64,000 nucleotides of DNA from Clostridia bacterium (GTDB lineage Bacteria > Bacillota > Clostridia > JAAYHZ01), in NCBI GenBank assembly GCA_050950825.1, contig JBMNIH010000002.1, forward strand, positions 448,001-512,000, read 5' to 3'. Shown here piece by piece: positions 16,196 to 37,660 of the stretch. Below the pieces are notes generated by a model. It was given only the letters and a program-made list of their open reading frames with translations, was not told the origin of the DNA and did not search any database. Position numbers and translations under genes: made by a program. The stretch's first letter is position 1. Each line of letters begins with the position of its first letter.

Positions 16196-17747
16196 TCTCC
16201 ATAATTAGGGGGTCAAACCGTTTTCGAAACGTGTCAAGACCCAAAAGCTCTGTCAGTTTGTCGAAAACATCGATTACCGATTGCGAATCGTTCGAGTCTC
16301 GTAAAAATGCAAGCATAAATTCGGTTTTAACAAAATGCAACGTCATCAGCACTTTACCGCCTTTTGTACCAAGCACCGAATCCATTTCCACGACGAAAGG
16401 AGCATTAACATCTGCCATCACTTTTTTTGTAATCATCATACGTGCGTCCTATTCGGCATTCGCGATCCACTTTATGAGTTACGCCCGGTTTTTTGCGAGA
16501 TCGATATCTTACTTTTCTGGGCATATCAATATTACGAGCCGTGAAGAGGCCGTAGTCAACGTAATTGTATAACGTCCTTTCGCTGTACATAATTTTATCG
16601 GCATTGTTTACGCAAATATGATGAATGGACTGGCCTTTTTTCAGAAGAGGTGATATCACGGTATCCAATTGTTGCAACGATTTTTCATCGATTGCCACAC
16701 CGGAACGTGATTCCGAACGTGTATATTCATATTCTTTGTCTGCAACTTTAGCGTCGTATATCATTTTTTGCAATGAGCACTTGCGTTTTGTCGAGCATCC
16801 GTTACATACGTAAGGCGGTTTTTCGAGAGCATCACACTTCTGTTCTACGAAAGCATCACAGAAGTCATTGCACAGTCTGCATATGCTACAGATCCCTTTT
16901 TCGCAAACTCCGCTTTTTTTACATAGCGAACGTTTATGACAACCGATCCTGTACTTACATGCATTGTACGATTGGCCGAAAGCACCTGTCTTTCGTTCTA
17001 CCCGATGTCGACGAACTTCTTTGGATATTGTCGTGCAATCTTTACCGAGTATTTTACCGATTTCCTTAAAAGATTTTCCCTCCTTCAATAAGTTTTCGAT
17101 ATCTTTCCTGTCTGATAACGTCAAATGAGTTGACATCATTATGGTTCTCCTTTCAAAATCATTTTGAAAGACATCGTTCTTTTTTAATGATTGCACTGAT
17201 ATCGGTAAGTAATACATGTCTTGTTAGTTTTTAGTTTTAGATCATGACAAAAGTCCATCCGGTTAAAAAGACAAGCAATGGCCTTTTGCGGCATAAACGG
17301 CCTCCTTCCCGGCAAAGCCGGGTCCCTTCCATTTATTCCACAGTGCCATGCTTTTCTTTTTTCGCCATGCTTTTGAACATATACCGAGGGATGAAGGGGA
17401 GATGCAAGCGACCAATTTCTCAACATCCCTCGTCTTTTATATCGTAGCATGGCGAACACCGTATTACTTTTATATTTGTTTAGGTAATGATAGTCTCAGG
17501 AATCAGCTAAAAATGCATGCTTTCTTTACTAGTAATTTTTTGTATTTGCGTTTGCATTAGTAAAGTCCACAATATTTTTATTAATATTTTTGCAAAAGTA
17601 AAATCAACTGCAGCTTTCGAAGGGTGGACTTTACTTTTTCAAATGAGCAGAACGTTCTTCAACGACGAATTTGTAAAGGAAAACCTTCAGTATTTTTCGA
17701 TATATGGTATATTAATATGTAAAAAACCGTTTGCTTGGAGGGGAATG

Positions 17748-18803
17748 ATGAAAAGCATGATGACGTCAAGAGAAAGAGTGTTATCGGTTTTTAAAGGAAA
17801 GCTTCCGGACCGAGTTCCGTGGATGGAAGGAATTACGGAGAATAAAATCGCAACCGCCGTTTGCGGAGAACCGATTAATGTTAAATGGGAGGTAAGTCCG
17901 GCAGGGTTTCCCGTTCAATCCGGAAGAGAGCTTGCACAAGAACAGATCAAAGTCAATAAGGTGTTCGGCAAGGACAATATTCAGTTTTCAGCCTTTGCCC
18001 CCATATTTGCTCGAAGAATGACAAAAACCGATGACGGAAGCAATGTTTTGATAGGCGACGGCATGATTCGTACTTTTGAAGACTTTGAGAAAATATTCCG
18101 GCTTCCCTCACCGAAGGACCAAGAATTCGTCGAAAAAGCTCGAGAATTCATCAAGTACAGCGAAAATTATTGTACCGTAGCGTGTATCCGATTAGGTATC
18201 GGAGCGACCCTTTTGTCCATGGGCATCGAAGGGTTTTCTTATGCCATGGCGGACGACCCGGACTTAATCCGTGCCGTCCACGACGCTTACGCTTCATGGA
18301 CGGAAGAAGTCTTAGACGTTATCCATGATTGCGGTTTTGACATTGTATGGGCTTTTGACGACATCGCGTTTAATAACGGTCCGATTTTTTCACCCGCTTT
18401 CTACGAAGAAGAAATTCTCCCCCGAGAAAAAAGAATTATCGATAAAATCAACGTTCCGGTCATTACCCACAGCGACGGCAATATGACGCCGTTATTGGAT
18501 ATATGGTTGAAGCTAGGTCAAGACGGAATTCATCCTATTCAACCGGATGTGATGGACATTGAATACGTGAAAGAAAAATACGGCCGGCAGGTGGTTTTGG
18601 TAGGCAATATATTCATGGATGATTTGGTTCACAAAAATCCCGAGGATATTAAAACACAAGTAAAAGACAGAATCGAACGAATCGGAAAAGACGGCCGCTA
18701 TATCATATCCTCAAGCAACAGCCTAACGGATAACATGAAACCCGAAAACGTAAAAGCAATGATCGAGGCCATCGAAGAATACGGATATTACGAAACGAAA
18801 TAA
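17748..18803 (+). CDS. Uroporphyrinogen decarboxylase / MtaA-CmuA superfamily protein
   Basis: MTSRERV...PDRVP, DDIAF...P.FSP, HSDGN, HPIQP, GYIISSSNSL-like motifs; RBS GGAGGGG. Confidence 0.8.
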   Translation: MKSMMTSRERVLSVFKGKLPDRVPWMEGITENKIATAVCGEPINVKWEVSPAGFPVQSGRELAQEQIKVNKVFGKDNIQFSAFAPIFARRMTKTDDGSNVLIGDGMIRTFEDFEKIFRLPSPKDQEFVEKAREFIKYSENYCTVACIRLGIGATLLSMGIEGFSYAMADDPDLIRAVHDAYASWTEEVLDVIHDCGFDIVWAFDDIAFNNGPIFSPAFYEEEILPREKRIIDKINVPVITHSDGNMTPLLDIWLKLGQDGIHPIQPDVMDIEYVKEKYGRQVVLVGNIFMDDLVHKNPEDIKTQVKDRIERIGKDGRYIISSSNSLTDNMKPENVKAMIEAIEEYGYYETK

Positions 18804-22447: not shown

Positions 22448-23698
22448 TTATTTTCGATTCGCCCGGGCAACCTTTTCGATGATGGAAGCGGCCAATTCGC
22501 AGTGTTCTTTTTCATATTTTTCGCTAAAGCTGGACCATCGGATAAAGGTTTTCAAAAAGCGATGAGCGTTAGGGCAAGTATTTTCATCGTATACATAATC
22601 AAAGGACGCCGGAGGCTTGCTGAAAGGATAAATCTTTTTCTCCGCTTTGCGTTGCAGAAATTTTAAGGATTCGGGCATTAAATAGTACTTGCCTAATCCG
22701 GCATCGCCGATACCTTCATCGGCTAATCGCTTCACAAATTCCTCGGGTGTACAGAGAAACTTTTCCGGGTCTATTCGAAAGCCGAACATCCAACAGGAAT
22801 ACAGGTCGACATAATCCGGAATTTCCAAAGGGAGTATCCCGTCAATATTACGAATCAAACTTGTCAAATACCTTGCCATTCGATCGATTTTTTCAACGGC
22901 CGGCTTTATGATTTCCAGCTGTGCCAGTGTCATTGCCGCCGTACAGGAAGGCATACGGTAAGCCAGGCCTTGGTCCTGATGGACTCTTCCGAAGCCCGGT
23001 ACCGTTTTGGCGTCTCGGCTGTGGCCCATATATCGTGCTCGGTCCGCAATTTCATCGTCGTTCGTAATGATGCAGCCCCCTGTATCGGAGCCTAAAGTCT
23101 TTTCGGCATCAAAGGAAAAAGCCGCCGCCTTGCCGAAGGTTCCTGCCAATCTTCCTTTATACTTTCCGAATACGGCTTGGCATACGTCCTCGTAAACAAT
23201 AAGCCGGTGTTTTTCCGCAAGCCGAAGAATAGGGTCCATATCGCAGATAATACCCGTTTTATGAACAACAAGAACGGCACGGGTTCTTTCGGTGATGCAT
23301 TTTTCAATGGTTTCTGCGGAGACGTTCACGCTTCCTTCTTCCGTATCGGCAAACACGGGAATGTAATTCTCGTACAAAAGACCCAAAACGGTACCGTAAT
23401 CGGTAACGGGGCTTACGATGATTTCATCGCCCGGTTCAAAACCAAAGGTTGCGGCTAGAACATGAAGTGCCGGCGTACAACCGGGCGTAGCGATGCAGTG
23501 CTTGACACCGTATTCCTTTGCAAATGTTTTTTCAAACCTTGTCGTCATATCCGAAGCCAAACCCGAGTCCACCACTTCCTGCAAATACTTCATTGCATTG
23601 GGTCCTATAATCCGCGGAAATAAGCCGGGCAGTTTTGTATTGAAATCCTTAAATGCATCCGCTCCGAATTTTGCATTTTCCGGTTTTCCCATATCCAT
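22448..23698 (-). CDS. DegT/DnrJ/EryC1/StrS family PLP aminotransferase
   Basis: GDEIIVS, PVFAD, EDVCQA, FSFDAEK (PLP Lys), GG.I.TND; RBS GGAGG before MDMGK. Confidence 0.88.
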   Translation of the reverse strand: MDMGKPENAKFGADAFKDFNTKLPGLFPRIIGPNAMKYLQEVVDSGLASDMTTRFEKTFAKEYGVKHCIATPGCTPALHVLAATFGFEPGDEIIVSPVTDYGTVLGLLYENYIPVFADTEEGSVNVSAETIEKCITERTRAVLVVHKTGIICDMDPILRLAEKHRLIVYEDVCQAVFGKYKGRLAGTFGKAAAFSFDAEKTLGSDTGGCIITNDDEIADRARYMGHSRDAKTVPGFGRVHQDQGLAYRMPSCTAAMTLAQLEIIKPAVEKIDRMARYLTSLIRNIDGILPLEIPDYVDLYSCWMFGFRIDPEKFLCTPEEFVKRLADEGIGDAGLGKYYLMPESLKFLQRKAEKKIYPFSKPPASFDYVYDENTCPNAHRFLKTFIRWSSFSEKYEKEHCELAASIIEKVARANRK

Positions 23699-23775
23699 CG
23701 GTAATCCTCCTGTCATGTCGTTATGGAAAGTGTACCGGAACACCTTGTGCATTTTTAACAAAATTCAAAGGTTTG

Positions 23776-23955: not shown

Positions 23956-25788
23956 ATGGATATGTTTAAGAAAATAATGGTGTTTATGACTGTCACTTGT
24001 ATTTTGTTCGCATTCTCCTCGTGCGGCATTGCACCTTCGAGTGAAAAGGAGGAGACAACTTCGGTCACAACAACGACACCCGGTACAACAACCAAGTCTT
24101 CGGAAACCACAAAATCCGCAGGAACAACGACGACAACAAGCACGACAACAACGGTTACTACCGAAGCGAATCCTTTAGGCGAGTTTTATGAAATCTCTTG
24201 GCTGGTTCGCTTTACGCAAAATTACGAAGAAGGCCGATGGGACGAGCTGGAGCTGGAGGAATTGTTTAATGTGGACATCAAGGTTTGGAATATCGACGCC
24301 AATAACGACAATGAAATGATGATGATGTATGCCGCAGGTGATGTTCCGGACTTTTACTGGTGTACAGGGAGAGTAAAGGAAAATTACGAGCAAGGACTCA
24401 ATCGGAGCATTCCGAAGAAAATGATCCGAGAATTTGCGCCGGTATTCTACAATATGGTGGATCAATACGAAGGCGGCTGGAGCAAGCTGGCGATTAACGG
24501 CAACGAAGAAGAGCAATACGGTATCAATCGTATGGACGTATACTTTTTAATGCCCTACACGGTTCCCGTATTTCGACTGGATTGGCTGGAAAATTTAGGG
24601 TTTTCTTTGGACAATTTGGCCTCCATTGATTCGAACAACCGATATTTCATTACGGACCGGCAATTCACTTTTTCCGAGATTAATGAAATTTACAGGGCTT
24701 TAACCGAAGACGATCCCGACGGAAACGGAGAAGACGATACGTACGCCTTGGTGTTTACGCCCAGCCATTGGTTCAATGCCTCTTTAATGTCTTCCTTCGG
24801 ATTTGTGGACGACAGCCGTTATTTGTATTACGACAAAGTAACCGGCAACTATGTTCAATATTTCGCATTCGAAGGCTACAAGAGATATTTAAATTGGGTC
24901 ACAGATCTGTTGGAGAAAGGCTATATCCGTGAGCTGCCGGGCCAAGAGGACTGGTTTAACGAATATTTGGCGGCCAGCGGAACGGGTAAAGTCGGCTGCT
25001 TGGCCGGGATGCTGGACGGATTCAACAGGGTGGATTATGATTTCTTCAGCACGTATCCGCCCAATACGGTCCACGACAGCGATCCCGACGCCCTTTTTGT
25101 GGTCACTCCCCCTCATCAAACGGAGGACGGAACCGGCCGGTATAAAGGGTACGGAGATTCTCCTTTTATAGACGGGTACGCGTATACATTCGGTGCCGGT
25201 GTGGATGACGGAAAAGCGGAACGCATATTGCGAATAATCAACTACATCAACGAAAATCCCGATGTCAAGTTTCGGTTCGACAACGGCATTGAGGGCGTAC
25301 ATTACAAATGGTCGGGGAAACCCTTCAAAAGTCCTTTGATTGTAACACCCATTGATAAAGTACCTCGAAAGTATACCCACGGTGCAAACATGCGTATTTT
25401 CGGTACCGCCGATATCTATTTTGACTTGTATCAAAAGTTTAATTACAGCGCAACCCATATCATGATGTTCGATTACTGGAAAGAAAAGGATCTGTATCGG
25501 TATGCGCTGGTGCCGGATAAATGGATCAGCAGTTTGGATGTACCGGATGAAATATACGACGCGTATTCGGATAAAAGTAATGAAGTTATGTCCGGCATCA
25601 ACTCTTTGGTTTCCGATTTTTATAACCGAGCTTTCAGAGGCCAAATCTCCAATATCGACAACGAATGGCAGCAATACATCGACACTTTATACAATGCAGG
25701 ATATGATGATTTGGTTGAATACTTTAACGATGAAAAATGGCCGATGTTTAAAAACTACATTGCGGATTTTACGGCTACACTGCGCTAA
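23956..25788 (+). CDS. Extracellular solute-binding lipoprotein (carbohydrate ABC, LplA-like) with Thr-rich linker
   Basis: Lipobox FSSC, poly-Thr tether, AGD.PD, R.DWLE.LG, DPDGNG..DT, G.EGVHY motifs. Confidence 0.82.
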   Translation: MDMFKKIMVFMTVTCILFAFSSCGIAPSSEKEETTSVTTTTPGTTTKSSETTKSAGTTTTTSTTTTVTTEANPLGEFYEISWLVRFTQNYEEGRWDELELEELFNVDIKVWNIDANNDNEMMMMYAAGDVPDFYWCTGRVKENYEQGLNRSIPKKMIREFAPVFYNMVDQYEGGWSKLAINGNEEEQYGINRMDVYFLMPYTVPVFRLDWLENLGFSLDNLASIDSNNRYFITDRQFTFSEINEIYRALTEDDPDGNGEDDTYALVFTPSHWFNASLMSSFGFVDDSRYLYYDKVTGNYVQYFAFEGYKRYLNWVTDLLEKGYIRELPGQEDWFNEYLAASGTGKVGCLAGMLDGFNRVDYDFFSTYPPNTVHDSDPDALFVVTPPHQTEDGTGRYKGYGDSPFIDGYAYTFGAGVDDGKAERILRIINYINENPDVKFRFDNGIEGVHYKWSGKPFKSPLIVTPIDKVPRKYTHGANMRIFGTADIYFDLYQKFNYSATHIMMFDYWKEKDLYRYALVPDKWISSLDVPDEIYDAYSDKSNEVMSGINSLVSDFYNRAFRGQISNIDNEWQQYIDTLYNAGYDDLVEYFNDEKWPMFKNYIADFTATLR

Positions 25789-25869: not shown

Positions 25870-26721
25870 TTATCCTTTGGTGTTAAGCTCCAGATTGTAG
25901 TTCTTCTTATTTTGGATCCGATACTGCATGGGAGAAATTTTCTCGTACTTTTTAAAGAAGATGCTGAAATATTGGCAGGAATTGAATCCGCACAAGTCGG
26001 ATATATAGCCTACGGAATAATCCGTTTCTCTTAACAACCGCTTCGCTTTGTCGATGGTGGCTTTAATGATGTACTCCTTAGGAGACAAACCGGTAACGGC
26101 TTGAAATTTTCGAGAAAAATACTCCCGGCTATATCCGGCCATTCTCGATAATTGATCGACGGTAAGGGTAGGATTGCCGTGTTCTTGGATATATCGGATA
26201 ATGGCCCCGAAATTTTCTTGCTTTATGCTTTCGGGCAATACCGTATCGTTTTTGCTTAAGCTTTTATGTTCCAGCCGATAACTTCGAATAATCCGCACTA
26301 ATGTTATCAAACCCAATGCATGAATCGTTTCCCGGTAGTAATACTTTTCATTGATTGCCTCTTCCACCATTTTCTCCATATAGATACCGATTTGCTCGTC
26401 TTTACAATCCATTCGGCGGGGAAATGCCATCATAACGGTATTCAGCTCGGGATCGTTTATCCGAAATTTAAAATCCAACGTATGAGCACCCTCTTTGGAT
26501 ACGACGGAAAACTTATGCATCTCCTTCGGTTTAAATACGGCCAGTTGCTTTTTTACCAAATCGTAGCACGCACCGCCATGCTCGATTTTTATTCTTCCGG
26601 CAATACAATACATAATGTGGTAGCTGTCTCTATGGTCATGCTCGGGATCCACATGATTTTTACTGTAAAAGCATTTTTCCACTTTCCATACGGTAATCCA
26701 TTCGTTTTTGCTCGTATGCAT
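25870..26721 (-). CDS. AraC family transcriptional regulator
   Basis: Cupin (H.H..Y.I.Y) plus C-terminal S.EYFSRKF...CGF....YFS.FFKK..SP..YR. Confidence 0.92.
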   Translation of the reverse strand: MHTSKNEWITVWKVEKCFYSKNHVDPEHDHRDSYHIMYCIAGRIKIEHGGACYDLVKKQLAVFKPKEMHKFSVVSKEGAHTLDFKFRINDPELNTVMMAFPRRMDCKDEQIGIYMEKMVEEAINEKYYYRETIHALGLITLVRIIRSYRLEHKSLSKNDTVLPESIKQENFGAIIRYIQEHGNPTLTVDQLSRMAGYSREYFSRKFQAVTGLSPKEYIIKATIDKAKRLLRETDYSVGYISDLCGFNSCQYFSIFFKKYEKISPMQYRIQNKKNYNLELNTKG

Positions 26722-26863
26722 CCTGCATATCACCTCCCGAAAATGAACTCAGGTTCATTATAGCATAAAATTACTTTACAGTATAAAGATTACCGGCGAA
26801 CATAGGGATGCAAAAGAAATGAATGCCCGGACAAAAGCCCGGGCGACGTTCGCTTCGGCTTCG

Positions 26864-27632: not shown

Positions 27633-28634
27633 TCATGAATGTCTTTCGCATGACAGTATGTCTTCGATTGTACATCTGACGTATGCGATCCTTTCTCTTT
27701 TCCATGTATAGGTAATGGATATTTCGTTTCCTTTGGCAACAATCGAAGGATAGGAGTATTCTCCTTCTTCATCTTCGAGAATACATGTAACGGGCCATGT
27801 CGCTCCGTTATCCCTTGATAAGCTCACTACCAGAGGAGTACGAGGTCCCCAATCCTCGCTTACGGGATTGTATACCAAAGCTACGGTTCCGTCGTCAAGC
27901 TTTACCGCATCGATGCCACTGTTATTATTCGGCAAAGAGGTTTCATATACCTCACCCCACGTCCTTCCTCCGTCCGTCGAATCGCTGCGGCATATCCTTC
28001 CGCAGGTGCTCCTTAGCAGCATATGCACCTTTCCGGGCTCCGATTCCCAAAGCGTGGGCTGGATCACACCCTTGCCGCGAAACTTTTGACGATTGATAGG
28101 AACGAAGGGACTTTTCTCCCATGTATATCCGTCGTCCGCGGAAATATCCGTAAAAGCGTTCCAATCCCCGATTTCGTTGGAGGCCGGGGCAAGCCATACC
28201 CCGTTGTGCAATACGATGGGCTTGTTTTTTACGGGTCCTCTTCCTCCGATATCTCCCGGAACCAACTCCTTCGGTTCGCTCCACCGGATTCCGTTATCCC
28301 GGGAGACCCTATACTTCGTATGCCATAGGCTGTCGTTTTCCCCTACCTTGTAATACAAAATGATTCTTCCGTCGGGGGCCTTAAAAAGAACCGGGTTCCA
28401 ATGGGCAATGCCTTCCTCGTCCGCGAGAACTTGCGGGAAACTCCAATTACCGTCCTTGCGCCTTGCGTACCAAATCGCTGTATCGGGTTTTTTTTCCGCC
28501 GTTCCTCCGAACCAAGCCGCAAGGGTATCTCCGTTGTCCAACTCCACAAGCGTGGAGGCGTGGCAGCTTAAAAACGGTCGGTCGTCCCCAAAAATATATT
28601 CTTTTCTTTCCGTTATTTTACATCCTCTTTTCAT
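27633..28634 (-). CDS. Exo-alpha-sialidase-like BNR/Asp-box glycosidase (GH33-like)
   Basis: Asp boxes S.D.G..W (x4), CHAST, NPVLF, RTPL, YSYP. Confidence 0.85.
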   Translation of the reverse strand: MKRGCKITERKEYIFGDDRPFLSCHASTLVELDNGDTLAAWFGGTAEKKPDTAIWYARRKDGNWSFPQVLADEEGIAHWNPVLFKAPDGRIILYYKVGENDSLWHTKYRVSRDNGIRWSEPKELVPGDIGGRGPVKNKPIVLHNGVWLAPASNEIGDWNAFTDISADDGYTWEKSPFVPINRQKFRGKGVIQPTLWESEPGKVHMLLRSTCGRICRSDSTDGGRTWGEVYETSLPNNNSGIDAVKLDDGTVALVYNPVSEDWGPRTPLVVSLSRDNGATWPVTCILEDEEGEYSYPSIVAKGNEISITYTWKRERIAYVRCTIEDILSCERHS

Positions 28635-28649
28635 GATTCCCTCCTCGTT

Positions 28650-30602
28650 TCACGGATTTCGAAAATCTTTGGACGGTTCCCAATCCCATTTCAATTCCCT
28701 TCTGAACCACATGTACACCTTTCCGTCTTCGGCACCCGATACGATGTCCGGTTCGCCGTCGCCGTCAAGATCCGTACACCAAGGGGAGCACTTGTGACAC
28801 ACAAGATCGATGGGCGTTCCGTCCTTGAACGTAATCAGTCGCGGTCTTTCAAATACGGGTTCCGAATCGGTCCCCGCATTCTTAAGCCAAAATAAGGTGG
28901 CTTTCCGCGGGAAAAATGCATTAATATGTACGTTCAGGTCCCGATGGGTACCTCCTATGATGTCCGTATTGCCGTCTCCGTCCCAATCGCAGGCAAAAAG
29001 CACCGTTCTACCGAGATGACCGCCCGGACCGCAGCATTTGACGGCACATCCGTCCGTGTATCGTAATAGACGGCCTTCACGTACCGCCGTGCAATCCTTC
29101 TCGTCTTTTTCGAAGAACTGCGCCAAGCCGTCTATGTTGACGGCGATCAATCTTCCGTTATTCCATAGAGCAGGTCTTGATCGCCAAGCCGTTGCAAAAT
29201 CCTTACCGTTTAATTGTAAGACAACTCCGGTATCAAATACGGGGTGGGTTCGGGTGCCGATGTTGCGATACCACGTTATTTTCCCCGTTATATCGTTGGT
29301 AAGCAGGTCAACCAGCCCGTCCCCGTCCCAATCGACGGCCAGAGGATTCGTATACCCCCATCTTTTTTCGGCCGGCCCCTGTATCGAACCCGAATCCCCG
29401 GCTTGGTGGCGTATCCGTTTTCCGTCCTTTGTTTTTAAGGGTTTACCGGCGCGATACGAAAACTTGTAGGGCTCATTGGCCGTGTTTTCAAAATACCACA
29501 AATAGCCGGACGAGTCTCCGACCACGAGGTCCAAGTCTTTATCGTTATCCGCATCGATGAAGCACGGTACCGACAACGTTTCCGCCCTTACGTCCCCTCC
29601 TTGCTTTAGAAGAGGAGGCCGTTCTACGAAGCCTTCGTCCGTGTTTTCAAGCCAAAATACCGTCCCCGGATTCCCCGAAACCAAGATGTCCGTTTTTCCG
29701 TCCCTATTGATGTCAAAGGGAAAAAACGACGTAAAGTAATGGGCTCTTTGCAAAGGACTGCATTTCATCTCCGTCGGTGAACCGACGGGCTTTAACGGTT
29801 TGTCCGTCTTTAGCATGTAGAGCCGGTCAATATTCATTCTTACAAGAAGCTCCGGCTTTCCGTCTCCGTCCAAGTCTGCCGGTACGGCGTCTAGTACGTG
29901 ATCCCATGAACGAAAGCGGCAAATCTCCTCGACGTCTTTATATACCGGATTTTCATTGGACCCGGAATTGTAAATAACATAGAGTATCGTATCGCCTTGT
30001 TTTCCTCTCCATTGTCCGTTGTCATCGTAACCTCTTCCGAAACCGGCGGTAGGATGTTCGTTGTCTCTCCAAAGGCTCATCCCGTCCGGCCAATATTTTG
30101 AGCTCCAATCGGAACAAGACATCAAAAGATGAACCGCCTCATTCCCCGGCAGAGTAAAAGAATGCAACGAGGCAAGGGAAGCGCCCTTCGGAGCACGGAG
30201 CTTTTTTAAAAGCTCTTCCATGCACAGCACCTTTTCTTTGCTTGCTTCGAATACGGGGTTGCTTCGCGGTCCGATATTTCGATACAGCATTAAACAATCA
30301 TCCTTCAGCGTCAGCAAATAAAACCCCGTTTTCTCATCCGTCGGCAAAGGGATGCAATATCGGCCTTCGATTCCTTCTAAAAATTCGGCAGGCTTGTAGA
30401 CGGGAATGGTATTTTGAAATCTTTGGTCCTCTCGGTATAAGTAGGTTCCGCCTCCAAAAAAGCGGGGATTGGCGTTGTACAAAATATCACTGCCTCCCGT
30501 ACCCGTCCAATCGACTACGGCGACGGACCCGTCCAAGGCTTCCCCTAACTCGGTAAACTCGTCCGGAGAGGTTTGCATGGCACGCATCAAATACTTGTTC
30601 AT
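28650..30602 (-). CDS. FG-GAP/VCBS repeat beta-propeller protein
   Basis: Repeated D.D.DG..D motifs (DLDGDGKPE, DINRDGKTD, DWDGDGLVD, DWDGDGNTD, DLDGDGEPD); no signal peptide. Confidence 0.8.
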   Translation of the reverse strand: MNKYLMRAMQTSPDEFTELGEALDGSVAVVDWTGTGGSDILYNANPRFFGGGTYLYREDQRFQNTIPVYKPAEFLEGIEGRYCIPLPTDEKTGFYLLTLKDDCLMLYRNIGPRSNPVFEASKEKVLCMEELLKKLRAPKGASLASLHSFTLPGNEAVHLLMSCSDWSSKYWPDGMSLWRDNEHPTAGFGRGYDDNGQWRGKQGDTILYVIYNSGSNENPVYKDVEEICRFRSWDHVLDAVPADLDGDGKPELLVRMNIDRLYMLKTDKPLKPVGSPTEMKCSPLQRAHYFTSFFPFDINRDGKTDILVSGNPGTVFWLENTDEGFVERPPLLKQGGDVRAETLSVPCFIDADNDKDLDLVVGDSSGYLWYFENTANEPYKFSYRAGKPLKTKDGKRIRHQAGDSGSIQGPAEKRWGYTNPLAVDWDGDGLVDLLTNDITGKITWYRNIGTRTHPVFDTGVVLQLNGKDFATAWRSRPALWNNGRLIAVNIDGLAQFFEKDEKDCTAVREGRLLRYTDGCAVKCCGPGGHLGRTVLFACDWDGDGNTDIIGGTHRDLNVHINAFFPRKATLFWLKNAGTDSEPVFERPRLITFKDGTPIDLVCHKCSPWCTDLDGDGEPDIVSGAEDGKVYMWFRRELKWDWEPSKDFRNP

Positions 30603-30633
30603 AACACGTATCTCCTTAAAACCCCTTTTCATT

Positions 30634-31566
30634 TCACGATCTTGTTATCGGTATTCCGAACGCCCGAGCGTATTCCGCCGAAAGGGAATGCAAAAATTCA
30701 ATTTCATATCGGTGAGAGATATCAAAGCCGGAGATCTCCTTGCTTCTGCATTCAAGCCGAATCCCTAATCCCTCCAATTGCATATAATACTTCGCATTGA
30801 CGGGATAGTATTGGTATTCGATGGCCGAAGCAAACCCGAGAAAGCTTTGAAGTCTTTTCGCCTGCTCCGGGTTGCTTGACCGCAACATCATCAACCCTTT
30901 GTAAAGCTCGGGATGAAAATTCGCCATAACTCCGCTGTATCCCGCCGCTCCGTACTCCAAAGTCTCTAATAAAGTCGCCGCATTCGCATTAAAGACCTTC
31001 AAACCTTTCGGCGATGCCTTCCGTATTTTCTCCTTAATGAGCTTAGGATTTCGGCAGGTATCCTTTAAAAAGAAGAATCTTCCGGTGTCGGCAAGCCATT
31101 CCGCAAGCTCGGGCGTTACGATCCGTTTGTAAGGATACGGACACTCATATATTCCCAAAGGGATGTCCGGAATCCATTGAAGCAAGCTTTCGATGTTTTT
31201 CATAAGGACCGAGTCCGGCTCATCCCGTCGGGCCAGCCGGCTGCCGATGAGAACCAAGGCATCAATGCCCGTATCCGCCATGGCCTTTAGCTCCTCCCTT
31301 TGTTCTTTCACGGATTCCGAAATATGCCCGGACGCGATTACGGGAACCCTGCCTCTTGCCAGCTCCTTGACGGTTCGTGCAAGGCGGGTTCTTTCCTCCA
31401 AGGTCAAGAAAAACATTTCGCTTGACTGGCAGACGGCAAACAAACCGTCCACCCCTTTGTCGATATACCACTCCACAATATTTTCCAAAACACCGTAGTC
31501 GATTTTATTGTCTTTAAAAGGCGTTATCATGGTAGGCCAAATCCCGTCCGGAATAACGGCTTTCAT
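30634..31566 (-). CDS. Dihydrodipicolinate synthase / N-acetylneuraminate lyase family aldolase
   Basis: MITPF, GLFAVCQSSEMF.L, YECPYPY, Schiff-base KDT. Confidence 0.88.
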   Translation of the reverse strand: MKAVIPDGIWPTMITPFKDNKIDYGVLENIVEWYIDKGVDGLFAVCQSSEMFFLTLEERTRLARTVKELARGRVPVIASGHISESVKEQREELKAMADTGIDALVLIGSRLARRDEPDSVLMKNIESLLQWIPDIPLGIYECPYPYKRIVTPELAEWLADTGRFFFLKDTCRNPKLIKEKIRKASPKGLKVFNANAATLLETLEYGAAGYSGVMANFHPELYKGLMMLRSSNPEQAKRLQSFLGFASAIEYQYYPVNAKYYMQLEGLGIRLECRSKEISGFDISHRYEIEFLHSLSAEYARAFGIPITRS

Positions 31567-31567
31567 A

Positions 31568-32332
31568 TTATGCACTCCTTTCACTGTCGCGTTGTGTATC
31601 CATTCTTGTCTGCATGATCCTTCGAACTTCCTCAAGGTCCTCCTGCGTATCCACACTCAGCGCGTTGTAGTCGTACCGGGTTTTCACCACCTTGATTTTA
31701 TACCCGTGCTCCAGCACCTTAAGCTGTTCTAAAGATTCGGTCAGAGCCAAGGGTGTATTTTCAAGATCGACGTAAGTTAAGAGAAACTCTTTTCGATATG
31801 CGTATATGCCAATATGTTCATAAACCTCGAGGTACTCCGATTTTCTCGGATATGGAATCAAGGACCGGGAAAAATACAAAGCATTGCCTTGGCGGTCGGT
31901 GACCACCTTCACCGTATTGGGGTCATGGAACATGCTTTCCTTTGCGATTCGGTATGCGCCTGTGGCCATAACGGCATTCTTGTCCTCTAAAAGCGCCGAA
32001 ACGATTTCATCGATGATCTCGGGCAGGATAAGAGGCTCATCCCCTTGAATATTCACCACAATATCGCAATCCGTGTTTCGCGCAACCTCGGAAACCCTGT
32101 CGCTTCCGGTTTGATGGTCTTTGGATGTCATGGCTGCTTCTCCCCCGAAGCCCTCTACCGCTTTGTATATCCGTTCATCGTCGGTGGCAACGATGACCTT
32201 ATCGATCAGTTTCGCTTTGCATGCTTGTTCGTAAACGTGTTGAATCATAGGCTTTCCGCAAATGTCCTTCAACGGCTTTCCTTCCAACCTCGTTGAGCCG
32301 TAACGTGCAGGGATAATGCCGATTGTTTTCAT
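31568..32332 (-). CDS. kdsB: 3-deoxy-manno-octulosonate cytidylyltransferase (CMP-Kdo synthetase)
   Basis: IPARYGSTRLEGKPL, ATDDERI, GSDR, NIQGDEP, YFSRS.IP, HIGIYAY, ESLEQL, VDT.ED. Confidence 0.92.
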   Translation of the reverse strand: MKTIGIIPARYGSTRLEGKPLKDICGKPMIQHVYEQACKAKLIDKVIVATDDERIYKAVEGFGGEAAMTSKDHQTGSDRVSEVARNTDCDIVVNIQGDEPLILPEIIDEIVSALLEDKNAVMATGAYRIAKESMFHDPNTVKVVTDRQGNALYFSRSLIPYPRKSEYLEVYEHIGIYAYRKEFLLTYVDLENTPLALTESLEQLKVLEHGYKIKVVKTRYDYNALSVDTQEDLEEVRRIMQTRMDTQRDSERSA

Positions 32333-32359
32333 GTTGACCCTCCGTAAAATTTCATTTTG

Positions 32360-32812
32360 TTATTCCGTCATTACTTTAACAACAATTTTTACAACACCGC
32401 TTTCTTTTTCGGCATTCCTTCCGGGCATATGGGCATCTTCGGGAAAAAGAATCATAAAGCTTCCTTCATCGACGGTGATAAAGTCCCCTTCCCCCGAATA
32501 CCGGGCAACGTCGTTGTCGGCGTCGTATTCTTTTGTATTACTCAGGCTGTGAATGTTGGCATAGCCGATTCTCTCACGGCCTTTGCAAACATATTGAATG
32601 TCAATATACTTTCCGTGAGCTTCCCATTGGGTATTGTCGACGGGCTTCGTTGTGTATTCGCTGACAACGGCATACAATTTTTTACCGTCAATCTCATGTA
32701 CCCCGATCTCCGGATCGGATTTCGCAATTTTTTGTAAAAAAGCAAGTCCGCGGGCAATTCTTTCGTCGATTCCTTGGTATATACGGGCATTGTAAAGCTT
32801 ATCGGTTATCAT
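32360..32812 (-). CDS. YhcH/YjgK/YiaL (NanQ-like) family protein
   Basis: EAH.KYIDIQY...G.E, FP.DAH.P, KIVVKV. Confidence 0.9.
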   Translation of the reverse strand: MITDKLYNARIYQGIDERIARGLAFLQKIAKSDPEIGVHEIDGKKLYAVVSEYTTKPVDNTQWEAHGKYIDIQYVCKGRERIGYANIHSLSNTKEYDADNDVARYSGEGDFITVDEGSFMILFPEDAHMPGRNAEKESGVVKIVVKVMTE

Positions 32813-32834: not shown

Positions 32835-34052
32835 TCAATACGTAAATTTTTTTGATTGAATCTTGCTTAGCATTAATGTTTTGTCCAACGGTTTAATTTC
32901 TTTTACGATATACTCCCTCATCGCCTGTCCTTCCGGCGACTGCTGCGGATAACTGATAAAGTCGAGATCGATACCGAGAGCACGGCTGACTTTCAAAGCC
33001 ATTATAGGCCATATAACGCCGATATCGCCGACAATGGGAATGCTGTTTTCCAGTCTAGAGAATGCGGACATCTCCATACGGAACGGGATTTTCGACAGCT
33101 TGGTTTTGGGCAGCCCCTTGTCAATCGCTGATTGAATGGTACCGCTTTTTTTGTCCAGCTCCCAAGCTTTTTTCAGGTTCTCATCCAAATCGATCCTGAT
33201 AATGGTTTTGTCCTTCAGACTGTAGGTGTTGTATCCCATCCGGTGGTGCCATATTCCGTGACCCGTATACGTTTCAAAGGGACCGTCATGGATCTCCTGC
33301 GTTAAGACAACGGCAGACTCAATAATCACATCCGCATCCTGCAGCATTTGAGCGATTCTTGCGCATCTTTGCGTATTCGGTATGCTGTCCGCGATGCACA
33401 TGCCCACCGCTCCGCCGCCTACCAGTTGTGGAACACTGACAAGAACCGGTATCCCCTTCCTTGCTCCCGTACCGATCATGGTGCGTTCATCGGCCCCTAA
33501 GCCGGCTACGCTTTCAAAGGGCATGCCGTAAGTCCTTGCAATGGCACCGATTTCGTAAGCGAGCATTTCCGTGCGTAGTCCCATGGGATAAGCCATATTC
33601 CCCGCCGCCTTGATGATGACCGAGCCTTCGATTTCGGCGCCTCGTTTTAACAGGTTTTCGTCCAAAATCATCTCTTTACTTAAGGTATCCAATTGCTCTT
33701 CCGTCATTTCGGTAAACTCAAATATGTTACCTCTCGGTGTTTTGGAAAGGTCAATGTATCCTTTTAATTTTTCCGCATCCACCCTCTTTACCTTATCAAG
33801 AACGCCGCCCATTTCATGGGCAATTACCGCGGAGCTGGTGGTAACGCCGTCGATGATTCCTTTTTTCATAAGCTCCGCGATCAGCGTCGTAACCCCTTCG
33901 TGGATGTTGGGCCCGCTGCCCGTAGCCACAACCACTTTACCGCCTTTTTTCTTCACCTCGACTATTTTATCCACGGACCGATCCGTGAAGCTTTTTGTCT
34001 CGGCATCCAAAAGGTTATACAAACCGTTTATGACCTCGCAATTTACATTCAT
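32835..34052 (-). CDS. Hypothetical protein, possibly deoxyhypusine-synthase-like NAD-binding fold
   Basis: VVVATGSG...LIAELMKKGIIDGVTTSSAVIAHE, IPVLV and C-terminal IVGD..VIWP segments resemble DHS-like proteins. Confidence 0.45.
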   Translation of the reverse strand: MNVNCEVINGLYNLLDAETKSFTDRSVDKIVEVKKKGGKVVVATGSGPNIHEGVTTLIAELMKKGIIDGVTTSSAVIAHEMGGVLDKVKRVDAEKLKGYIDLSKTPRGNIFEFTEMTEEQLDTLSKEMILDENLLKRGAEIEGSVIIKAAGNMAYPMGLRTEMLAYEIGAIARTYGMPFESVAGLGADERTMIGTGARKGIPVLVSVPQLVGGGAVGMCIADSIPNTQRCARIAQMLQDADVIIESAVVLTQEIHDGPFETYTGHGIWHHRMGYNTYSLKDKTIIRIDLDENLKKAWELDKKSGTIQSAIDKGLPKTKLSKIPFRMEMSAFSRLENSIPIVGDIGVIWPIMALKVSRALGIDLDFISYPQQSPEGQAMREYIVKEIKPLDKTLMLSKIQSKKFTY

Positions 34053-34159: not shown

Positions 34160-35473
34160 TTAATCGTTACGTATTTTCAATCTTGAGACGTAGCCGCCAC
34201 TATGCCGGTCCAAGGAATAGACTTCGAGCCATAGGTCGGAAGCTCTTTGTTCTTGTTTTAAGGGGATTTTTCCTTGTACTTCTTGAAAACCCCTTACCTT
34301 TACAACGGTATGGTCGATTTGTTTTACGGTCATGGAAGGAAGGGCTTTTCCCTTCTCCGCTGCAGGAGGAAGCGCGGGGTTTCCGTTATATACCGTAACC
34401 AAGGTCCGGTTGCTGTTGAACACTCCTTGGTTTTTAAGAGTAAAACAAATCGTTTGGTCGACGATTTTCGCATCGTTAACGTCCACATGATGATGCAATT
34501 GGTCTTCTTTAACGGAAACACAAGCATATGCGTCCACAATTCCGTAGCCTAGCAAGTCGCTTTTGCCATCCTCGTCAACAGGCAATTGTTGGGGCATATA
34601 CGCCGTATTCTGCATGATTTGCTTTATTTGCTCGTTTTTCAACTGCGGAAATCTTGCTCTTACCAACGCGGCTACGCCTCCCGCGAATCCGCACGCCATA
34701 CAACCGCCGGTAAAAAAGATGTAATTTTGATCGCCGCCGTAGCCGTAAATATGGTCCGTTTCCGGCTTTCCCTTTCGTTCCCCTCCGGGAGCGGCCATAT
34801 CCACGTAATCCGCAGAGTCGCATATATCTGCCGGCAAATGATGTCGGTTGGAGGATCCGACGGCAATCACGGCATCCGTTCCGGTGTAATAAGCCACCCT
34901 TCGACCGCGATTGTCACAGGTCCCGGAAAAGATCATACAATCGTTATCGTAGGCATAGTCCAATGCTTCCAACAGCTCCGTATTATCATACGGAAAAGCA
35001 AAGTCGCCACCCAACTCAAACAGGCTTTTCCCGTATTCTCGTTCTCCGTTTAAATATCCGTGGGGCATAACGATAACGGATGCACCGTTATCCACGGCAA
35101 AGCGTACGGCTTTACTCCAGCAGTCCGGATTTCCGTAACCTACTCGGACAATCATAATTTTGCATTCGGGAGCCGTATTTGCAATCTCGCCCGCCACAAA
35201 TACGTGGTGGCCTTTATGATAATCGTTTTGAGGGTTGTCGTATTCCAACGTATAGTCATCGGAAAACGCGTCATAACCGTTGACCGTGCCGATACCGGGA
35301 ATGCTCTTTTCCCAAAGATGCCCCTCCATCATGGGATGGTGACGATACCCTAAGTCGATTACCGCGACAATGATATCGGCGGATGAACGGGTAATCCGGT
35401 GGGCTTGATGAACATTCAAGCATTCCAATGCCCAACCGTAAGGCTTTAAAGAAAAATCGGATAAGTCATTCAT
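34160..35473 (-). CDS. S8 subtilisin-fold protein with Cys in place of the catalytic Ser
   Basis: VAVIDLG (Asp), KGHHVFVAGEI (His), CDN (oxyanion Asn), VIAVG, DMAAPG, GGCMACGFAGGVAALV, GYGIVDA. Confidence 0.8.
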   Translation of the reverse strand: MNDLSDFSLKPYGWALECLNVHQAHRITRSSADIIVAVIDLGYRHHPMMEGHLWEKSIPGIGTVNGYDAFSDDYTLEYDNPQNDYHKGHHVFVAGEIANTAPECKIMIVRVGYGNPDCWSKAVRFAVDNGASVIVMPHGYLNGEREYGKSLFELGGDFAFPYDNTELLEALDYAYDNDCMIFSGTCDNRGRRVAYYTGTDAVIAVGSSNRHHLPADICDSADYVDMAAPGGERKGKPETDHIYGYGGDQNYIFFTGGCMACGFAGGVAALVRARFPQLKNEQIKQIMQNTAYMPQQLPVDEDGKSDLLGYGIVDAYACVSVKEDQLHHHVDVNDAKIVDQTICFTLKNQGVFNSNRTLVTVYNGNPALPPAAEKGKALPSMTVKQIDHTVVKVRGFQEVQGKIPLKQEQRASDLWLEVYSLDRHSGGYVSRLKIRND

Positions 35474-35484
35474 GCTTTATCCTC

Positions 35485-36534
35485 CTACCCAATGGGGTTC
35501 CAAACGATCTCTACCTTTTTTCCGGGTACCGCTTCGATGTTGATCAAGGTGTCGGCGCCCTTTCGTTTTATACTCTCCGTTTTATTATGTCCCGTAAATC
35601 CCCCTGACGTTATTGAAAATGAGGTGTTCACTTTGGCCGTATGAGGATCGATGCTTACACCGGAAATTTTTACGGTCACCATGGAGTTGATAACGCCGAC
35701 AGGCCAGCTTCCGTTCATGTCGAATCGGATTCGGTTTTCTTCGCATTCCACGTTTTCGATACGAATGTTTCTTCTCATCAGCTCGTAATCAATCGCGTCA
35801 TCCGGTTTTACGGCCCAAAAATTCCCTTCGGATATTTCGTACAGCTTTTCGAAGTACCGGGTAAGATACAAGGGGGTGGTGCATTTGTGAGATTGGGGTA
35901 CATCCCACATCACAAGATGGGTGGTCAACAGCACCCAAGAATCCTTAACAAAGTCAAGGGACAAGTTTTCCAACCTCAACTCGTTCGGCCATCCCGGTCT
36001 TTCTTTAAAGCCGCCGGATGCCAGCATGCAATTTCCGATGTTGTAAAAATCGTAGCCTTCTCGGTTCGGGCCTCCTTCTACCGACACGCAAGCCAAGTAA
36101 TGCTGCTTTACCAAATCCAAAACGGATTCGTAGTTATACATATCGTTGCATACGGTAAAGATCCGGACCGGGTAATCAATCTCATCCTCAAGTCTGTATT
36201 TGCTCCATACGATTTCTCGAAACATGTTCAGTCCCGGCGATGCCGGAAAACAATAGTGGCTCCAGCTGTGATTGCCGACTCCCCAGCCTTTGTTCAATAA
36301 AAACTTCAAATCATCGGCGCTCATATGGACATAATCATTCAAAGAGCTTAAATAGCAATTTCGTTTTCGTCCCAATTGGCCGGCTACCACATCCACATGT
36401 CCCGGTATATTGAACCTTTCATGAATTGGCAGGGCATTGGCCAGACAATCCACCGTTCCTTCATCGTAGGTCATGGAAAATGCAAATAACGCATCGTTTT
36501 TGAATCGGCAAATACGAACATCAATGTTGCTCAT
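35485..36534 (-). CDS. Polysaccharide deacetylase (CE4/NodB) family protein
   Basis: SMTYDEG, GNHSWSH metal motifs; no signal peptide. Confidence 0.75.
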   Translation of the reverse strand: MSNIDVRICRFKNDALFAFSMTYDEGTVDCLANALPIHERFNIPGHVDVVAGQLGRKRNCYLSSLNDYVHMSADDLKFLLNKGWGVGNHSWSHYCFPASPGLNMFREIVWSKYRLEDEIDYPVRIFTVCNDMYNYESVLDLVKQHYLACVSVEGGPNREGYDFYNIGNCMLASGGFKERPGWPNELRLENLSLDFVKDSWVLLTTHLVMWDVPQSHKCTTPLYLTRYFEKLYEISEGNFWAVKPDDAIDYELMRRNIRIENVECEENRIRFDMNGSWPVGVINSMVTVKISGVSIDPHTAKVNTSFSITSGGFTGHNKTESIKRKGADTLINIEAVPGKKVEIVWNPIG

Positions 36535-36555: not shown

Positions 36556-37524
36556 TTAAAATGAATCGTCAATGACTATTTTCTTGCCTGTGATTGCGCT
36601 TTCCGTGGCGATTACGGCGATTCTGTTTGCACGTAAAGAGTGCTCCGTGTTGACGATGGGGCTTCCTTTCAGCCAGGTTTCCACCACACTCATTCGCTCC
36701 GGCAAAGGAACCTTCATGCCGACACTCTCTTGGTTTGTACAGAAAACCGTTCCCGCCGCCATGTCCATATCCAGCACTCCCTGTGTTCCGGCAATCATAA
36801 CCCGATAATCGCTTCCTTTTGTTTGCGGGAGCATGCGTTGGCCTTCAATGACCGCCGTGCCGCCGTTGCTTAATTCGCAGTACATGGATGCATGGTTTCG
36901 CAAATTTACTTCGTTTTCGTATCCGATGTTTCCCGTTCGGGCAAGGATGCTTTGAATTTTCAATCCGGTCATCCACTCCAATGCATCGATTCCGTGTATC
37001 AAAAGGTCCAAGAACATGCCTCCGGACCGATTCACGTCTAAAAACCAAGGCGGACGCTGTTCTTTCTTCAATTGCACCGACATCCGAATGTGGCAGTGCA
37101 CCGGCTCTCCGATCATTTTTTTATCCATGCATTCCTTGACGGCCATGTACGAGGGATTGCCCCTTAGCGTCAAAAGCATGATGATGTCTTTTTTTAGCCG
37201 GGATACCGTTTTCTCGATTTCCGCTTGTTCGTTCCGGGTTATGCATAAAGGCTTATCCACCACAACATCCATCCCGCGGGTCATACACTTTTGAACGGTT
37301 TCAAATTTTAGATCGTTTTCGTTGGCAATGCCTGCAAGGTCAAGGGCGTGGTTTTCCGGCATGGCATCCGCATTTCGGTAATTGGGAATACCGTATTGCT
37401 TAAAATGCTTATTGTAAATATCCTCGTTGACGCTTACGGCAACCAAATCGATTCCTTTACCGATACAACCCGTTATTTCGCTTAAATGGGTTTCCCCGCC
37501 GATAATGCATGCTTTCCTATTCAT
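36556..37524 (-). CDS. Gfo/Idh/MocA family oxidoreductase
   Basis: VDKP, SGG.FLDL.IHGID, GTQG. Confidence 0.85.
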   Translation of the reverse strand: MNRKACIIGGETHLSEITGCIGKGIDLVAVSVNEDIYNKHFKQYGIPNYRNADAMPENHALDLAGIANENDLKFETVQKCMTRGMDVVVDKPLCITRNEQAEIEKTVSRLKKDIIMLLTLRGNPSYMAVKECMDKKMIGEPVHCHIRMSVQLKKEQRPPWFLDVNRSGGMFLDLLIHGIDALEWMTGLKIQSILARTGNIGYENEVNLRNHASMYCELSNGGTAVIEGQRMLPQTKGSDYRVMIAGTQGVLDMDMAAGTVFCTNQESVGMKVPLPERMSVVETWLKGSPIVNTEHSLRANRIAVIATESAITGKKIVIDDSF

Positions 37525-37629
37525 TGCGACTCCTTCTTTTTCGGTTTCATTTGTTTTTATTATACCGAATACCCTGCGGTATTTTTTATGTTCTTTATAC
37601 ATTATTTAAGTTTTTATGCGAAAAAATTA

Positions 37630-37660
37630 AAAACGGCCGTGGGTTATTTCCACAGCCGCT
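37630..37660 (-). terminator. Probable rny terminator
   Basis: CGGCTGTGG...CCACGGCCG hairpin then T run on minus strand. Confidence 0.6.

Follow-up and report, generated by a model that had tools for sequence, protein, structure and literature searches.

A subtilisin-fold protein family with a conserved cysteine at the nucleophile position, encoded beside a CE4-like deacylase gene in a Clostridia bacterium

The window analysed here is a 64,000-nucleotide (nt) stretch of contig JBMNIH010000002.1 from a Clostridia bacterium. On its minus strand, at 34160..35473, an open reading frame (ORF) of 437 amino acids (aa) plus stop encodes a subtilase which, by its sequence, is a member of family S8 by descent and fold but no serine peptidase. 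Because Cys258 stands in place of the defining Ser, the name "S8 family serine peptidase", under which sources list its relatives, is wrong in chemistry. Sequence conservation and the predicted structure make it quite probable that Cys258 is the working nucleophile. We infer catalytic activity, a preference for hydrolysis over transfer and the class of substrate, and we give roughly an even chance to the proposal that the protein is catalytically active, mostly cytoplasmic and a thiol amidohydrolase whose substrate is an amino-sugar-like catabolite with an amide.

The gene starts with ATG, and a GGAGG sequence lies 8 nt upstream. The Pfam profile PF00082 (Peptidase_S8) matches residues 33-311 over profile positions 3-288 of 288 (E 4.7e-21, 75.8 bits, curated cutoff 21.8). 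No NCBIfam family scored above its own cutoff; the best match there reached 113 bits against a cutoff of 279, and identity with a type VII secretion system (T7SS) mycosin was therefore rejected. The ESM Atlas returned generic S8 clusters only and gave no lead on function. Taken together, the Pfam match, the AlphaFold2 model and the Foldseek results delimit a subtilisin-fold catalytic domain at about residues 10-325 (34499..35446, minus strand). It is followed by a C-terminal beta-sandwich domain (residues 330-437; 34163..34486, minus strand), which contains the invariant residues Q385 and H388 and is defined by strands between 330 and 433 in the model and by CARDB annotations on part of the similar ESM Atlas clusters.

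The residues around Cys258 read FFTGGCMACGFAGGV, with the central motif GGCMACGF. When aligned by phmmer to mirolase (8ehe), a subtilase of solved structure, G257-C258-M259-A260-C261-G262 pairs with T-S-A-A-C-P, and in the profile alignment canonical S8 rows read GTSMA.PHV in the columns of this motif. Both alignments place Cys258 on the position of the nucleophilic Ser and Gly262 on that of Pro225, where 221 and 225 are subtilisin BPN' numbers as used in the accessible part of PMC7921005. A sequence-only reading of this stretch had reported that the Asp, His and oxyanion Asn motifs are kept and that a Cys codon TGT lies at 34702-34700, and coordinates and motif proved correct. The triad residues are Asp40 (codon GAC, 35354..35356) and His89 (CAC, 35207..35209; aligned with the first His of HGTH), the oxyanion-hole Asn is Asn188 (AAT, 34910..34912), and Cys258 (TGT, 34700..34702), the equivalent of BPN' S221, and Gly262 (GGA, 34688..34690) follow, all on the minus strand. 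We take Asp40, His89, Asn188 and Gly257 to correspond to BPN' D32, H64, N155 and position 220. The order of Asp, His and nucleophile and the presence of the oxyanion Asn are those of Peptidase_S8; in place of the Ser of G-T-S-M-A-x-P the protein has Cys258 in G-G-C-M-A-C-G, that is, a Cys at position 221 as in subtiligase.

The Cys is a feature of the whole family. In a word-indexed search, 5.8 billion proteins yielded 608 matches, the best 120 of which (about 450 aa long and 38-100% identical to the window protein) were aligned with MAFFT; among the labels of their sources are Armatimonadota, Planctomycetota, Verrucomicrobiota, Kiritimatiellae and Anaerolineae. Across homologues of 39-78% identity, position 258 is Cys in 119 of 119 non-gap rows, the sole other row being a gap, and it is preceded by Gly and followed by Met in 119 of 119 rows each; position 263 is Phe in 117. 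Asp40 (115/115 non-gap rows), Asn188 (120/120) and His89 (117/118 non-gap rows) are equally well kept, and all four catalytic positions are invariant in the 66-row alignment used for structure prediction (A1). At position 262 we found Gly in 102 rows, Ala in 9, Ser in 7 and Glu in one, so that 118 of 119 homologues carry a small, non-Pro residue of the subtiligase type at position 225. The second Cys of the motif behaves differently: position 261 is Cys in 21 of the 120 homologues, Ser in 61 and Ala in 34. It is therefore no family feature, the C221-x-x-C224 pair listed by the sequence-only reading does not extend to the family, and a redox or metal motif C258-x-x-C261 was rejected.

A filter-free profile search over 1.84 billion representatives recovered six full-length core-family representatives (clustered at 50% identity) at 539-671 bits, and all core-family rows covering the motif, fragments included, carry GGCM; the nearest Ser-bearing protein scored 245 bits. 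Among 48 DNA sources (the window and loci L001-L047) the Cys codon is TGC in 39 and TGT in 9. Since one of the three patterns used to fetch these loci contained GGCMA, the count of 48 Cys in 48 sources is biased and only the codon mix is informative. The cluster of sequences 100% identical to the window protein has 14 members on 4 contigs, and contigs from three metatranscriptome libraries of three studies (X15, X16, X18) and from one DNA run show positions 34700-34702 unchanged. TGT and AGT are one base apart, which would suit an error of sequencing or assembly or an AGT>TGT change confined to this genome. Such an artefact now has practically no probability left: the identical 14-member cluster speaks against it, and it is refuted by the Cys in 119 of 119 homologues, the GGCM of the core-family profile rows and the agreement of three RNA libraries and one DNA run. 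We likewise rejected a broken or decaying protease, since the catalytic positions are kept across the homologues. That the change reflects selection instead of decay, as had been suggested, is borne out by the family-wide retention of Cys, Asp, His and Asn, by the use of both Cys codons and by the grouping of Cys proteins in one clade described below.

Further positions are conserved around the presumed active site. His90, beside the triad His89, is nearly invariant, and P137-H138-G139 is invariant or nearly so in the family; we assume that this segment stands where subtilisins have the substrate-binding S-L-G strand. Next comes an insertion some 22 residues long (approximately 140-165) with the family-specific conserved residues G155, D157, F158 and P161. 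R189, the immediate neighbour of the oxyanion Asn, occurs in 110 of 120 homologues; R191 is invariant and R192 nearly so, and sister branches have other residues at these places. This Arg cluster presumably lies at the place of the subtilisin S1 rim.

The AlphaFold2 model, built from the 66-row alignment, has a mean predicted local distance difference score (pLDDT) of 93.1 and a predicted template-modelling score (pTM) of 0.92. It shows a subtilisin-type domain to about residue 325 and then the beta-sandwich from 330 to 437. A Foldseek search against the PDB returned subtilisins, savinase, thermitase and engineered peptiligases as top matches (E about 1e-19, about 21% identity), with template-modelling scores by target of 0.82-0.87; the best matches were all subtilases with probability 1.00, which identifies a subtilisin fold. 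We judged the geometry of the triad from the placement of its residues on predicted secondary-structure elements, the expected placement being that of the subtilisin topology. In the model, Asp40 ends strand 35-40, His89 lies in helix 84-100, Asn188 comes after strand 180-184 and Cys258 starts helix 257-274. The catalytic residues are thus predicted to sit on the elements expected of a subtilase.

To place the family among its relatives we used the S8 profile matches, of which the best 150 of 63,215 (E <= 0.001) were inspected. Outside the core family, 13 further representatives carry the Cys: P0130, P0131, P0133, P0134, P0137, P0140, P0143, P0146, P0148, P0153, P0155, P0185 and P0186. Ten of them retain Pro225 (GGCMA[TA]PHV and similar) and three have Ala; the residue before the Cys is Gly, except for one Gln and one His. 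Several of these sister proteins have signal peptides, and their lengths are 572-1210 aa. A FastTree phylogeny was built from the 63 S8-domain rows among the best 150 matches that cover 75% or more of the columns, and it unites all 13 Cys tips in a single clade of 15 members (support 0.996). This clade also includes P0129, a Ser protein, and P0139, whose motif is degenerate and in which Glu replaces the triad Asp. The sub-branch of P0129 and P0130 is sister to the subfamily of the window protein. A search with the sister protein P0133 added one more Cys protein (P0265) to this small branch and found Ser in 115 of the 118 rows covering the motif, from which it follows that the Cys lineage is a small part of S8 and that the window's subfamily is its largest known branch.

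From these sequences we read the Ser-to-Cys exchange as old, with T220G as its constant companion and with P225G/A/S as a later addition in the window's subfamily. The pairing of S221C with P225G, which the sequence-only reading had put forward, therefore stands for that subfamily but not for the wider clade, where 10 of 13 sisters keep Pro and the companion is Gly220. Two groups within the clade deserve mention in their own right. P0129 and the fragment P0130 share the context YASGQ[S/C]AA.PHAA at 38% identity and form a natural Ser/Cys pair on one scaffold. P0131, P0134, P0137 and P0140 combine signal peptides with Pro225 (GGCMATPHV), lengths of 572-1210 aa and repeated C-terminal beta-sandwich-like matches; by sequence they are thiol-subtilases destined for export, an unexpected setting for a nucleophile that is easily oxidised.

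The window protein itself is predicted to stay in the cell. The stop codon of the CE4-like gene lies 11 nt before the start of the S8 gene, leaving no space for an N-terminal extension, prodomain or signal peptide, and we take the N-terminus (..KPYGW..) to correspond to the start of mature subtilisins. The gene spacing and the non-hydrophobic N-terminus thus confirm the earlier statement that signal peptide and prodomain are missing. The 112 homologues that cover the W14 column have at most 57 residues ahead of it (median 19), so that none of the 112 has a prodomain. A signal-peptide-like hydrophobic N-terminus is absent in 98 of them and present in 14. By these sequence features the family is mostly but not always cytoplasmic, and the description of a cytoplasmic enzyme holds for the window protein but not uniformly for the family, in which 14 of 112 look exported.

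In the window the Cys-S8 gene is the last of a three-gene unit on the minus strand, in the order Gfo/Idh/MocA oxidoreductase (36556..37602, by profile matches), CE4-like metallo-deacylase (35485..36534) and Cys-S8, with gaps of 21 and 11 nt. A terminator-like hairpin of 11 pairs, 7 of them G-C, with a T run (37632..37660, minus strand) lies directly after the RNase Y gene and before the Gfo gene and marks, at 37660-37632, the upstream edge of the unit. Genes for RNase Y and FolD flank the S8 cluster. The CE4-like protein matches PF01522 at 28.3 bits (cutoff 23.1), and D24, E25, H89 and H93 (HSxxH) and H206 are invariant in 18 aligned orthologues; the metal site and the catalytic His of CE4 enzymes are present, with motif 1 reading DE rather than DD. 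Its profile match to the polysaccharide deacetylase 6dq3 is weak (E 0.0025), marking it as a divergent CE4 member, and from its sequence it is probably an active metallo-deacylase. A predicted complex of the S8 protein with this neighbour scored 0.01 against a mark of 0.32, which speaks neither for nor against binding.

Comparison with other loci shows that this arrangement recurs. We called and clustered ORFs in the 48 sources; the S8 ORF was clustered in 46, L022 and L033 having dropped out. A CE4-like partner is present in 28 of the 48 sources, L033 included. Where both ORFs are held, S8 and CE4-like genes are on the same strand in 27 of 27 sources and no more than 750 nt apart in 24 of 27; the CE4-like gene is mostly downstream of S8 and lies upstream in the window, L001 and L040. 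Sources with adjacent pairs are labelled as Bacillota-, Chloroflexota-, Gemmatimonadota-, Verrucomicrobiota-, Kiritimatiellota- and Armatimonadota-type, labels that can be wrong for metagenome-assembled genomes (MAGs). The other recurrent partners, counted over 46 loci, are M24 creatinase/prolidase-like and DUF3604 genes (19 each), MR/MLE (14), Gfo/Idh/MocA (13), class I/II aminotransferase (12), and DegT, AraC and URO-D-like genes (10 each). The M24, DUF3604, MR/MLE and aminotransferase partners weigh less because they come mostly from closely related Chloroflexota genomes, and outside this phylum the recurring set consists of AraC, DegT, Gfo, S8, CE4 and URO-D. In L008 the starts and stops of module genes overlap. 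The tight linkage to CE4-like and Gfo/Idh/MocA genes seen in the window alone is hence upheld by the neighbourhood comparison and recurs in other phyla.

A second, paralogous type of S8 locus is found in five Chloroflexota sources (L037, L039, L041, L043 and L045) whose genomes also hold the CE4-linked copy. Its partners are solute-binding proteins, SelA/class-V aminotransferase-like and M24-like proteins, a gene with a homocysteine S-methyltransferase domain and an ABC ATPase, and no CE4-like gene was found among its clustered ORFs.

Sequence, model and gene context can be combined into a putative mechanism. A Cys258-His89-Asp40 triad with an Asn188 oxyanion hole would let the thiol attack an amide or ester carbonyl, giving a thioester acyl-enzyme, instead of an ester, that would be resolved by water; Gly257 and Gly262 may give room for the larger sulphur. 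Since the window protein has neither prodomain nor signal peptide, it would work in the reducing cytoplasm of an anaerobe, where a thiol nucleophile should be stable. The AraC, DegT, Gfo/Idh/MocA, CE4-like and URO-D-like partners would fit a substrate-specific catabolic module and no general protease. In such a module the S8 enzyme might take an acyl or aminoacyl group off an imported compound resembling an amino sugar, or cleave an amide within it. An acetyl group would be taken off by the CE4-like enzyme, the DegT aminotransferase would turn the freed amine into a ketone and the Gfo/Idh/MocA enzyme would reduce the keto sugar. The conserved Arg189, Arg191 and Arg192 after the oxyanion Asn suggest that the substrate may be anionic. 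Of the roles raised by the sequence-only reading (acyltransferase, ligase or amidase, with an N-acyl sugar as possible substrate), gene context favours a catabolic amidase and offers no support for a ligase.

Several observations weigh against this amidohydrolase proposal. No CE4-like gene was found in 20 of the 48 sources, so the context is not uniform, and many of the Chloroflexota loci come from close relatives and are non-independent. The M24 neighbours in 19 of 46 loci and the M14 neighbour in L015 point equally to a peptide substrate. The 14 of 112 homologues with a signal-peptide-like N-terminus do not fit a cytoplasmic site of action. The contigs from RNA libraries show presence in such libraries, where DNA can occur, and leave transcription unproven. 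As the activity of engineered thiol-subtilisin is drastically reduced according to the accessible part of PMC7921005, a Cys at this position does not automatically make a good amidase. The weakest step concerns the compound, which in this organism is perhaps a nonulosonic-acid-type sugar, a suggestion drawn from the window's own neighbours only.

We also considered that the protein may be a thiol endo- or exopeptidase acting on peptides or glycopeptides (imported or recycled peptides, muropeptides or D-amino-acid peptides) together with metallopeptidase neighbours. Peptidase activity is the default for S8 enzymes, peptidoglycan deacetylases are found among the CE4 enzymes, an M24-like gene adjoins S8 in 19 of 46 loci, on either side in two Chloroflexota locus types, and in L015 an M14 carboxypeptidase-like gene overlaps the S8 start; MR/MLE enolase-superfamily, aminotransferase and Asp/Glu-racemase-like genes lie near S8 in Chloroflexota. 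However, nearly all M24, MR/MLE and aminotransferase neighbours belong to closely related genomes of that one phylum, outside which the recurrent partners are of sugar type (DegT, Gfo/Idh/MocA and CE4, with an AraC regulator), and the P137-H138-G139 strand and the insertion of about 22 residues suggest a remodelled cleft when set against BPN'. A peptidase therefore appears unlikely to us. We are more doubtful still about a natural subtiligase, in which an amine and not water would resolve the thioester of a ligase or transacylase, for instance to re-acylate the amine freed by the CE4-like neighbour. Cys at 221 with a small residue at 225 is the combination of engineered subtiligase, and thioester acyl-enzymes favour aminolysis (both from the accessible part of PMC7921005); peptiligases are among the best Foldseek matches, though with the same scores as ordinary subtilisins. 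Yet the clustered loci have no recurrent precursor-peptide, ATP-grasp, carrier-protein or ester-forming gene beside S8, the activated acyl donor that a ligase needs is not evident, and the module looks catabolic, with AraC/IclR regulators, dehydrogenase and aminotransferase and, in some loci, solute-binding proteins; moreover, the sister Cys branches keep Pro225.

A dead pseudo-subtilase that binds a ligand or partner, like the pseudoproteases CspA and CspC, is very improbable. Loss of the nucleophilic Ser is the usual mark of S8 pseudoenzymes, as stated in the accessible part of PMC7200643, and the clade contains P0139 with its degenerate motif and Glu for the triad Asp. In the family of the window protein, however, the replacement is always Cys and Asp, His and oxyanion Asn are invariant, as expected of a working triad and not of a relic; in place of the degenerate and variable triad of CspA and CspC we found four invariant catalytic positions. 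Beyond the amidohydrolase proposal for the window protein, a broader claim, to which we give somewhat less than an even chance, is that the subtilisin fold includes an old natural lineage with a Cys-His-Asp triad, which would make clan SB one of mixed Ser and Cys nucleophiles, and that the main branch of this lineage is no protease but a thioester-forming acyl-transfer enzyme of sugar metabolism, small-molecule amidase or natural subtiligase, that partners the adjacent CE4-like deacylase. In its boldest form an acyl or aminoacyl group would be moved between the amines of amino sugars.

The nearest characterised relatives differ in defined ways. With the S8A enzymes subtilisin BPN', Savinase and thermitase the window protein shares the fold and the order and placement of Asp, His, oxyanion Asn and nucleophile, whereas it has Cys for Ser, Gly for Thr220 and Gly for Pro225, lacks prodomain and signal peptide, is about 21% identical and adds the insertion of about 22 residues after the PHG strand, an RGRR stretch and the C-terminal beta-sandwich. 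The intracellular subtilisin proteases (ISPs) of Bacillus are cytoplasmic S8 enzymes without signal peptide or classical I9 prodomain; these retain the Ser, act as general proteases and are regulated through a short extension at the N-terminus. Engineered thiol-subtilisin, subtiligase, peptiligase and omniligase (S221C with or without P225A/N) share Cys221 and a small residue 225 with the window protein, and the peptiligase structures 7am3 and 7am7 are among its best Foldseek matches. They are laboratory mutants of secreted proteases, whereas the window lineage is natural and anciently conserved. Thiol-subtilisin was made chemically more than 50 years ago, and engineered subtiligase is S221C/P225A, in which P225A relieves crowding; P225A or P225N makes room for Cys221 (accessible part of PMC7921005). 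The S221C/P225A make-up of subtiligase had been cited correctly by the sequence-only reading. T220G, the companion in the Cys lineage, is outside the engineered set as far as that part of PMC7921005 describes it.

Comparable exchanges of the nucleophile within a conserved triad are known from different folds: the accessible parts of PMC4576821, PMC6642262 and PMC9647873 describe Ser and Cys nucleophiles on one scaffold for the chymotrypsin-fold viral 3C and TEV proteases and for alpha/beta-hydrolases with Cys-His-Asp. Literature matches were limited to engineered thiol-subtilisins and to such swaps in other folds. A natural Cys-nucleophile subtilase or the S8 gene module is not described in the full texts searched, which mostly leave out subscription journals, and supplements too, so that a prior description is possible. 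A term search of the main text of PMC11593635 gave no occurrence of cysteine, Cys or thiol.

The host genome (3.55 Mb, 97% complete) holds the S8 gene in single copy. Among 41 genomes, its own and those of relatives, the gene is present in two, its own and one of the same family (68% identity), and it was not found in the same-genus genome searched; its distribution among relatives is patchy. The nearest named relative is a Clostridiaceae-labelled MAG (L001) with 67% identity. Runs that hold window DNA are sludge, anaerobic-digester, bioreactor and biogas metagenomes, many of which may be its source.

Other members of the recurrent module lie further away in the window: a DegT/DnrJ/EryC1 aminotransferase (22448..23761, minus strand), an AraC-family regulator (25870..26733, minus strand) and a URO-D-like protein (17517..18803, plus strand), the last separated from the rest by a transposase. 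A DDE transposase (18914-20203, DUF772 and DDE_Tnp_1) and HTH_38 proteins (16405-17217 and 20226-21614) occupy the space between the URO-D-like gene and the module, and together with the patchy distribution in 2 of 41 genomes this suggests a mobile or recently rearranged accessory region. An ORF of 610 aa between the DegT and AraC genes (23956-25788, plus strand) has no Pfam match at E <= 0.001.

The next gene downstream of Cys-S8 encodes a 405-aa protein (32835-34052, minus strand) and is preceded by a promoter-like site (34143-34115) that lies just past the S8 stop. Weak matches of this protein, all below threshold, are to deoxyhypusine synthase, the Rossmann domain of nickel-pincer-dependent ornithine cyclodeaminase/ArgZ and the GSU2086 family. 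After this deoxyhypusine-synthase-like protein the same strand continues with YhcH/DUF386, a CTP_transf_3 cytidylyltransferase and a protein of the DHDPS/N-acetylneuraminate-lyase family, and further downstream with an FG-GAP protein, a BNR_2 sialidase-like protein, IclR and AraC regulators and the DegT aminotransferase. With its listed GTG start (31656) the DHDPS-like ORF shares 89 nt with the cytidylyltransferase gene, and the true start may lie further downstream. With the sialidase-like, lyase-like, YhcH and cytidylyltransferase families taken in their usual functions, the run 27633-32812 (minus strand), which comprises the sialidase-like (333 aa), FG-GAP (660 aa), lyase-family, cytidylyltransferase and YhcH/DUF386 genes, looks by sequence like a sialic- or nonulosonic-acid-type utilisation set beside the S8 unit.

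By analogy, the window protein would work most like an engineered thiol-subtilisin or subtiligase, yet it is natural. Correcting the annotation would touch at least 120 clusters (90% identity) that carry the motif or match the family. Thiol-subtilisin is the standard case of nucleophile identity limiting catalysis, and its descendants subtiligase, peptiligase and omniligase are working peptide ligases. If our reading is true, the subtilisin scaffold tolerates and exploits a thiol nucleophile in a lineage conserved from Bacillota to Chloroflexota and Planctomycetota, and nature's compensating changes would be revealed: Gly220 throughout, a small amino acid at 225 in one of the branches and, in one sub-branch, Ser forms next to Cys forms. 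These proteins would then offer fresh starting points for ligase engineering, and the genes around them point to an uncharacterised, widely spread catabolic module of anaerobes.

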